In this document: positions 44,809 through 45,373 of the stretch, in pieces
Layout of the letters: every line of letters starts with the position of its first letter
How positions within the stretch are numbered: position 1 is the first letter of the stretch
DNA from: an uncultured Chlamydiae bacterium
Lineage (GTDB): Bacteria; Chlamydiota; Chlamydiia; Chlamydiales; Parachlamydiaceae
Length of the DNA stretch: 64,000 bases
Direction of reading: 5' to 3'
Assembly: GCA_963754655.1 (NCBI GenBank)
Contig: CAVWGN010000001.1
Coordinates: 1-64,000, forward strand
The notes under the pieces: model-generated
Database searches by the model: none
The model's input: only the letters and a program-made list of their open reading frames with translations
Told to the model about the DNA's origin: nothing
Translations under genes and position numbers: made by a program

Positions 44809-45373
44809 TAGTACTCAACCACATTAGTTTTGTGTATTTAGACTGCTTCAAAGCCCCGGGGTAGGGTGTTCATTTTGTGCAAAAAATGAGCTTTATTTTC
44901 ACAATAATTGGCATAGTTAAATTGAAGGTCGCATGTTTATGCCGTCCTTTCAGGACTCGATGTCTTTTTGATAGAACCCAGGCCTCCGCTTCGCTGCGAC
45001 CTGGGCTGTAACATGACGGCCCTTCAGGCCTAACAAAAAGATGATTTAGGGGCTATAAAAGAGGGACTTAAACATCTCTTGTTAAGGCCTGAAGGGCCGT
45101 CATGTTACAGCCCAGGTCGCAGCGAAGCGGAGGCCTGGGTTCTATCAAAAAGACATCGAGTCCTGAAAGGACGGCATAAACATGCGACCTTCAATTTAAC
45201 TATGCCAATTATTGTGAAAATAAAGCTCATTTTTTGCACAAAATGAACACCCTACCCCGGGGTTGAATTGGCGTAACTGGGTCCATATTGTGCTAATATT
45301 GACCCGCTTACGCCAATTCAACCCGGGGCTTTGAAGTAGTCTAAATACACAAAACTAGTGTGGTTGAGTACTA
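44809..45373. mobile_element. Nested palindromic element, copy 3 (all layers plus an extra 59-bp cassette)
   Basis: TAGTACTCAACC...GGTTGAGTACTA ends. CCCCGGGG junctions at 44854, 45255 and 45322. GGCATAG layer at 44910-45206 with one central unit in opposite orientation. Confidence 0.93.

Follow-up and report, generated by a model that had tools for sequence, protein, structure and literature searches.

The window, by which we mean the whole 64-kb stretch of DNA analysed here, carries at 44809-45373 a 565-bp non-coding element that is probably a composite non-autonomous transposon, built from the inside outwards and with its two arms homogenised by template switching. Its parts are of known kinds (REPIN-like doublets, MITEs, REP-targeting insertion sequences (ISs) and quasi-palindrome correction), and as these ingredients are individually known the surprise is limited. 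What we add is to assign the layers one by one to four enzyme families, to document empty sites and autonomous partners, and to trace the concentric form to mirroring, not to central insertion. The original prediction had not recognised the element as a described system; this holds for the multi-layer family as a whole, on which a literature search found no paper (subscription papers lay outside its scope), and fails for the core, which is a catalogued motif, Rfam RF01687.

The sequence of events that we favour begins with the core, which sequence identity shows to be a REPIN-like inverted doublet of the hairpin arm of a Y1 gene, without the gene, and would owe its origin to Y1 activity. D ends enclose this core, and the unit spread with 8-bp duplications, presumably through an IS256/ISH6-like enzyme to which matching ends elsewhere point. 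One D unit would then have landed off-centre in a C MITE, of which empty and asymmetric filled forms are found, and the short C arm would afterwards have been copied onto the other side. A Hermes/ISCth4-fold IS family would deliver the resulting C-D-core unit to 9-bp NCCNNNGGN sites, most of which lie in other hairpin repeats, the interior of A among them; the target itself and one exact pair of empty and filled sites are observed directly. Finally, the A ends would carry whatever they enclose to CTAG, where a TA duplication is seen, with the resident IS630 as the probable enzyme. Throughout, template switching would homogenise the two halves, erode the inner duplications and give off-centre insertions a concentric appearance. 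Most probably the family is selfish DNA, and it takes up insertions of other ISs as well. Its parts in the focal copy, and the other copies in the window, are listed in Table 1.

Table 1. Parts of the focal element and related copies within the 64-kb window.
Feature	Position	Strand	Remarks
TA target duplication of layer A, left	44809..44810	.	inside CTAG
Layer A left arm (GTACTC...), IS630-type MITE end	44811..44852	+	
GCCCCGGGG, 9-bp target / left duplication copy for C	44853..44861	.	
Layer C left arm (TAGGGTGTT...), MITE end, uncatalogued Hermes/ISCth4-fold IS family	44862..44909	+	autonomous relatives with TAGGGTGTT ends
Layer D left arm (GGCATRG...), MITE end, uncatalogued IS256/ISH6-like family	44910..44935	+	
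Core arm X, three-hairpin 3' end of subclass-1.2 Y1 gene	44936..45034	+	92% identical to flank of C1:395753-396202
Acido-Lenti-1 match in left X	44977-45031		
Central spacer Z, sole asymmetric part of core	45035..45081	.	tandem spacer units in other copies
Core arm X, inverted copy	45082..45180	-	Acido-Lenti-1 match 45085-45139
Layer D right arm	45181..45206	-	
Layer C right arm	45207..45254	-	
CCCCGGGG, right copy of C target	45255..45262	.	one base short of 9-bp direct repeat
Module B, 59-bp hairpin	45263..45321	.	28 paired copies genome-wide; absent from the original prediction
CCCGGGG junction and layer A right arm	45322..45371	-	
TA target duplication of layer A, right	45372..45373	.	inside CTAG
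Second stack A-C-D-X-Z-Z-X-D-C-A	8078..10128	.	two spacer units
Complete 1462-bp IS1182/IS5-like IS (ORF 8335-9462) in first hairpin of X	8221..9682	+	DDE_Tnp_1 and DUF772
D-X-Z-Z-X-D without C or A	38755..39134	.	
D-X-Z-X-D without C or A	59228..59525	.	exact 8-bp duplication AAAATAGA
Degenerate A-type element without core	18963..19051	.	empty A or collapsed A-B-A

Read from the left, the focal copy has the order A, C, D, X, Z, X, D, C, B, A, and the layer motifs named in the original prediction all lie where it had placed them. The nesting that it described is real; full concentricity is not, because hairpin B sits on the right side only and leaves the stack off-centre (C lies 51 bp from one A end and 117 bp from the other). 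The bounds that it gave for C also had to be moved: GGGG/CCCC belong to the target, and C itself runs TAGGGTG...CACCCTA (44862-45254). Folded as single-stranded DNA, the element forms a single long hairpin with another branching off to the side (-319 kcal/mol; z = -51; 0/100 shuffles equally good), and the main arms, 44854-45049 and 45067-45262, are 97% complementary. It contains no ORF of at least 100 aa and has these hallmarks of a MITE: terminal inverted repeats, many copies and no transposase. The inner part of the left A arm may derive from an older module that B has in common with it; in genome G001 (locus L018) B and its junction sit inside another shell. The notion that B is a mirror of the right arm of A, taken from the copy at 18963, was dropped for the latter reason, and that copy may instead be a collapsed A-B-A. 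Direct repeats were found at 0/28 pairs of module B and, with a loose search pattern, at 0/36 of module E.

Both further copies that had been announced for the window, the second full stack and the degenerate A, are present. The former extends over 2 kb because a complete IS occupies its core hairpin; the duplication of this IS measures 5-9 bp, its register being ambiguous because the target is palindromic. The two D-only copies had each been credited with a target duplication of their own, which is exact at 59228-59525; the 9-bp repeat at 38755-39134 is weaker evidence, since it is a near-palindromic A/T run within longer mirrored flanks.

BLAST of the focal element against the genome (3.16 Mb, two contigs) returned 800 hits at 247 loci. 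We counted 246 A, 186 C and 331 D ends among the terminal inverted repeats and about 80 paired C units, and when the genome was parsed with module queries a grammar emerged in which many combinations of B, E..E, F-H-F, J and C-D-X-Z-X-D-C are found inside A, modules accounting for 4.3% of the genome. None of 65 elements lies inside an ORF of at least 150 aa, and gene orientations at 63 loci were tandem in 37, convergent in 16 and divergent in 10 (raw counts). The closest homologues of the core-associated gene come from Chlamydiota, chiefly Parachlamydiaceae bins. Full stacks are also found on the 35-kb second contig (C2:23708-24917 and C2:34012-35310/1-114), one of them broken by an IS1182-like element at the contig end. 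Other arrangements include a 4-kb tandem cluster of F and H modules (C1:412468-416617), tandem spacer arrays of up to 1.3 kb (C1:1766751 and 2994640) and a further symmetric shell with AACTGAAG... ends around D-X-Z-X-D (C1:1081500-1081939 and 1188434-1188873), a 162-bp form of which, at C1:740411, looks empty.

The layers derive from different transposase families, as had been proposed: A fits a TA-duplicating IS630 type, C a Hermes-fold type and D an IS256/ISH6-like type. The TA duplication of A stands on 67 of 82 A pairs that have TA on both sides, 48 of those 67 as CTA..TAG, and on informative sides outside CTAG, of which 19 fit a TA duplication and 1 fits a 4-bp repeat; a 4-bp CTAG duplication was ruled out on these sides. 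For an A-B-A insertion in module J both the empty and the filled site are visible. The genome holds an intact IS630 (NF033545, 206 bits) with ends reading cTA|GTACT, whose terminus (GTACTTT) has only 5 terminal bases in common with that of A (GTACTC); as no IS630 with closer A-like ends was found, we infer the enzyme of A. A-type ends occur in 2/351 genomes of the phylum and in 0 viral contigs, and two matches in one genome (G124) are small A-like MITEs with no transposase seen. In its short terminal inverted repeats, TA duplication, CTAG preference and lack of an ORF, A resembles IS630-type MITEs, from which it differs in carrying inserts of up to about 2 kb that comprise at least five other module families. 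The available text of PMC2170065 describes the TA duplication of IS630, and its reference list includes a paper whose title gives a preference for TA in CTAG (Tenzen and Ohtsubo 1991); Correia, RUP and ERIC are entered as MITEs in Table 1 of PMC3184786.

Layer C fits a MITE of an uncatalogued Hermes/ISCth4-fold family that is resident in the genome, and this family probably supplied its enzyme. The resident IS is 1848 bp long and present in about 11 copies with a 419-aa ORF, which matched no Pfam or NCBIfam family, a Pfam scan of its first 70 residues also being empty. A structural model of the protein (pLDDT 88.5) is nearest to Hermes (hAT) and ISCth4 (IS256), at E of about 2e-5 to 4e-4, and the alignment contains invariant D, D, DxxH and E; unlike these enzymes, with which it shares 11-13% identity and a TM of about 0.4 or less, it uses a 9-bp GC-rich target. 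The resemblance is one of fold only, and hAT membership is not supported by the sequence. Exact 9-bp duplications flank 9/10 paired copies of the resident IS (shuffled mean 1.3), with a GCCCWGGGC-like target consensus; a 7-bp duplication, entertained for both this IS and C, was replaced by 9 bp after inspection of elements in relatives and a length scan. Module E starts with the end sequence of the resident IS. A second member of the family (C1:426686-428475), single-copy, with two ORFs and 28% identical to the first, has the ends of the 146-bp MITE F (70 pairs), and the F-H-F composite is bounded by its own direct repeat. In this genome the search for autonomous elements ending in C or D was negative; relatives contain two autonomous Hermes-fold elements (L284 in G107 and L280 in G252) with TAGGGTGTT ends, the end of layer C, and 9-bp duplications; C-type ends occur in 2/73 genomes of the family.

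Of 186 C ends, 166 adjoin a NCCNNNGGN-like 9-mer, and at C1:453199 a hairpin that is empty in 25 other copies is filled, with an exact ACCCAGGGC duplication. Among 79 C pairs, exact direct repeats number 2 (shuffled 1.8), repeats within one mismatch 15 (6.9) and inverted repeats 19. Several of the single mismatches fall on the base next to C, each lengthening the hairpin, which fits erosion of the duplication by mirroring. Remnants of C with one end only, four in number, lie beside IS4 and IS5 elements in a tandem array of repeat-protein paralogues (C1:1892700-1925700); a further IS remnant in this array is presumably IS982-like.

Layer D does occur alone with 8-bp duplications, as claimed: among 30 pairs (some embedded in other layers) 6 are exact and 13 lie within one mismatch, and in a scan of lengths from 5 to 10 bp no other length gave more than 1. 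Many solo copies carry two different ends, so that the symmetric form of D is derived. In the metagenomes, 80 loci yielded 40 D-type pairings and 16 exact 8-bp duplications, a few of them duplicates or mispaired neighbours. D ends were found in 4/72 genomes of the family, 119 times in one (G156) around unrelated contents, and D-type MITEs with other contents occur in relatives. Four of the metagenome loci (L150, L175, L196 and L217) are autonomous ISs of 1.6-1.8 kb with GGCATGGTTCAA ends and transposases of 484-521 aa, which fall below every Pfam and NCBIfam cut-off and belong to a family with many MITEs. These proteins give weak matches to IS256, ISH6 and ISL3 and none to IS1595; the best scores, 39 bits against a cut-off of 240 (ISH6) and 34 against 150 (IS256), fall far short of the curated cut-offs for membership of either, and by profile the family is unrelated to the Hermes-fold family (probability 0.6%). 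Among the enzymes suggested earlier for D, an IS256-like one is favoured, as an uncatalogued IS256/ISH6-like family; IS1595 (PF12762) and IS6 (PF13610) have no match in the genome. A search with one query did not find the D-family gene in this genome, and judging from its ends D would have been mobilised by a distant IS256/ISH6-like enzyme that has apparently since gone from it.

By its sequence, the core consists of two inverted copies of the arm found at the 3' end of a subclass-1.2 Y1 gene, with the gene itself missing. Among nine Y1 (PF01797) matches in the genome, the gene at C1:395753-396202 has an X arm directly after its stop codon and a diverged arm upstream; the focal X arm, compared with that flank in Table 1, has 343 hits genome-wide at a median identity of 90%. 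Five distinct subclass-1.2 Y1 types are present, four of the five with the exact Y---Q--HH signature, and three other types seed arm families of their own (104, 77 and 147 hits; a fifth type, 34). The proteins pass the IS200 model (NF033573, 64.5 bits against 55) and fail the RAYT model (NF047646, 23.4 bits against a cut-off of 80), so the expectation of a Y1/RAYT gene flanked by the core hairpins is borne out for the Y1 gene and its flanks and not for RAYT identity. Of the 280 X arms, 262 lie inside D (179 of them in C+D units, 83 where D stands alone), 11 at the ends of Y1 genes and 7 elsewhere; on this distribution the doublet is not supported here as a mobile unit in its own right. In relatives the doublet is bare or lies within other shells, and related doublets were found in 13/40 of them. 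One near-perfect nested palindrome of about 440 bp (L011, G016:C61) has the same core in a different outer shell, from which it follows that stacking arose in another genus too. Internally deleted Y1 units, in which two X arms enclose a 121-bp remnant of the gene, have multiplied to give at least seven copies (C1:234015-234340, 631154, 960476, 972985, 1797175, 2325102 and 2793860), one of them wrapped in J and A. At C1:1560750-1560964, 1940956-1941170 and in the 492200 region, a small MITE with GGCTGACAG ends sits in the first hairpin of X and in the hairpin at the right end of an IS200/IS605 remnant.

The outer two hairpins of X match the Acido-Lenti-1 RNA motif (RF01687) at 36.4 bits, with a gathering score of 37 and E of 2.2e-6. 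No copy in the window reaches the threshold; genome-wide, 11/54 scored copies exceed it (37.1-38.7 bits), and 14 control genomes gave no match. Rfam miRNA matches in the element scored far below gathering and were set aside as hairpin noise. We also scanned 40 Y1-homologue loci, chosen by the analyst from 80 with most Chryseobacterium rows left out: the motif (E up to 0.05) lies near 21/40, a count taken at Y1 homologues alone, 11 are above gathering, and 12 have inverted arms on both sides, mostly about 50 bp from the gene. A literature search, with subscription papers outside its scope, found no paper connecting Acido-Lenti-1 with Y1 genes. Catalogued as an RNA, the motif occurs here in inverted pairs and behaves as a terminal DNA module of Y1 genes. 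The element thereby ties an abundant orphan Rfam 'RNA' to a Y1 subclass without a named repeat.

The core has the features by which REPINs are recognised, an inverted doublet with a spacer forming a hairpin and the same repeat flanking a Y1 gene, and with its hundreds of extragenic copies it resembles both REPINs with RAYT/TnpA-REP (Bertels and Rainey 2011, PMC3116915, in the available text) and TIRtrons with TIRYT (Di Nocera 2013, PMC3733652, likewise in its available portion). It differs in that the gene is of subclass 1.2, the arms are three-hairpin structures of about 100 bp and the doublet lies nearly always inside DDE-type shells. The signature and low copy number are those of TnpA-Y1 subclass 1.2, whose members, in the accessible part of Quentin et al. 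2018 (PMC6006769), generally lack typical IS200 terminal structures and have no associated repeat named; unlike these, the Y1 genes here carry inverted or 3' hairpin arms that have since multiplied.

Several IS families insert next to or within the modules. Ends adjoin a module in 15/16 cases for IS256, 7/8 for IS4, 21/28 for the Hermes-fold IS, 13/19 and 17/49 for two IS5 types and 0/5 for one IS481 end; for IS1182-like ends the count is 11/22, with split hairpin halves under-called, and all 10 copies inspected lie in X. This resembles the REP-targeting ISs (ISPpu9, ISPpu10, ISPa11, ISPsy8, ISRm19 and ISRm22), which, like their MITEs, enter palindromic repeats at constant positions (Tobes and Pareja 2006, PMC1525189, as far as its available text goes), and differs from them in that several unrelated families do so at once and an outer layer subsequently takes the targeted repeat elsewhere.

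The two arms of a given copy have been made alike after insertion. Arms are identical in 28/63 loci compared with 3% of between-locus pairs, 14/39 private substitutions at the 63 loci are mirrored in both arms, and exact mirroring of the flanks continues into host hairpins for as much as 103 bp outside C (a figure in the older 7-bp register). The symmetry ends at the TA of A in 58/67 paired elements, with 0-1 further base. We infer template switching as the process that homogenises the arms, a known mechanism of quasi-palindrome correction according to the available portions of PMC7202029 and PMC8604942. As in that process, arms turn identical and mutations are mirrored; here, unlike there, the arms are 200-500 bp long, and transposon architecture and target duplications appear to be rewritten. 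Targeted insertion, arm-to-arm copying and export by an outer layer would together constitute a route to long bacterial palindromes.

The original prediction had the palindrome grow step by step, each new MITE entering an earlier one at its centre of symmetry. This account, which we hold to be quite improbable, is largely refuted as a general rule and may still apply to a symmetric subfamily of A, whose centre is itself a CCCCGGGG target. The layers do derive from different families, as it requires, and 13 of 35 A-enclosed C units are centred, but the other 22, the focal one among them, are off-centre. C lands on either CCCWGGG of unrelated hairpins, and natural empty A elements (C1:163156 and 334987) have no central CCGG. 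At C1:958109 the ancestral C is asymmetric, with a long left arm and D near the right end, and the four C-end remnants near C1:1.90-1.92 Mb represent the same site empty; in the light of both, the best reading of symmetric C is that its two sides are copies of the short arm. For the concentric form we accordingly favour insertion directed by the target sequence, after which one arm was copied onto the other. A Y1 HUH nuclease could instead have built and spread everything alone, by single-strand cleavage and fold-back copying, the outer layers being captured flanks. We think this improbable to a slightly greater degree than central insertion: an intact Y1 gene with the core arm exists, mirroring extends past C into host hairpins, shells of other sequence are nested round the same core in G016 and junction bases around CCNGG vary, yet the A and D duplications are length-specific in the manner typical of DDE enzymes, C, D, E and F ends all occur on autonomous DDE elements, and the bare doublet is scarce here, as the distribution of X arms given above attests. 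Y1 may even so drive the mirroring step.

Turning to whether the stacks move, the original prediction held that the composites could be mobilised, and whole stacks do appear to have moved: four A-C-D-X-Z stacks of 499 bp are 98.4-99.4% identical in unrelated flanks, and two A-B-C stacks of about 561 bp are 99.5% identical, again in unrelated flanks. We conclude that composites probably move as units; ectopic gene conversion could also produce near-identical stacks. One D variant is found at 20/28 loci in an A/B context and 8/35 others (Fisher p 1.4e-4, 13 columns tested), a p that overstates the case as the loci are not independent. A contrary explanation, which we rate as unlikely, is that the stacks are immobile and that pre-existing repeats were filled independently, then homogenised or shuffled by recombination or gene conversion at CCCWGGG. 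Most other stack pairs are only 91-97% identical, left and right contexts often differ, and the flanks of 35/69 C units are neither direct nor inverted 7-mers (counted in the older 7-bp register), all of which it would accommodate; near-identical full stacks at unrelated CTAG sites that share private spacer variants (one such variant in three of the four), the small number of empty A elements and the direct repeat bounding F-H-F composites argue against it. That the palindromes are fold-back assembly artefacts is extremely improbable. No contig among those examined from public runs spans the whole element, and the best share of the genome's sampled words in such a run is 0.18, so that these runs likely contain relatives and not the source. 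Short-read contigs from public soil and aquatic runs, in more than one study, nevertheless span the A-C-D-X junctions (run X2, 44808-45021) and the centre (run X2, 44992-45124; run X4, 45017-45099), and among their loose ends are the same IS ends, at identical bases; symmetry halts at target duplications, ISs lie at fixed bases within the arms, and related doublets recur in relatives.

Beyond the composite transposon with homogenised arms, we put forward, tentatively and as something less than an even prospect, a self-reinforcing relay of arm mirroring, a hairpin-targeting Hermes-fold transposase and IS630-type export, in which the family is an IS sink and Acido-Lenti-1 is the DNA end of subclass-1.2 Y1 elements. 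If so, mirroring would make perfect palindromes and with them new CCCCGGGG / GCCCWGGGC targets for the Hermes-fold transposase, and the outer IS630-type ends would export the finished stack to new sites. One non-coding element would then be propagated by four enzyme families (Y1 and three DDE, two of them uncatalogued), the family would act as a sink keeping most IS insertions out of genes, and Acido-Lenti-1 would be the seed of such stacks in several phyla. With modules making up about 4% of the genome and several IS families beside them, the idea of an IS sink is testable. For two transposase families missing from Pfam and NCBIfam the analysis supplies ends, targets and duplication lengths, and one of these, a bacterial Hermes-fold enzyme with a 9-bp GC-rich target, is assayable.

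Two further features of the window deserve mention. Directly to the left of the element, 44464-44785 (paired core 44498-44749) belongs to a separate palindrome family, K, of about 260-320 bp and with about 40 hits. By eye K resembles the arms of the Y1 gene at C1:2939324, although no window copy passed BLAST against that flank, and in public run X1 a loose end at 44464 joins the K end to the apparent first codons of a Y1 gene, which suggests that in a relative K either landed on a Y1 start or arose from one. Elsewhere in the window, at 29037-31650 and 40023-41579, lie ORFs with 75-bp (25-residue) tandem repeats, three paralogues in all, which we take to be DUF4116-like.
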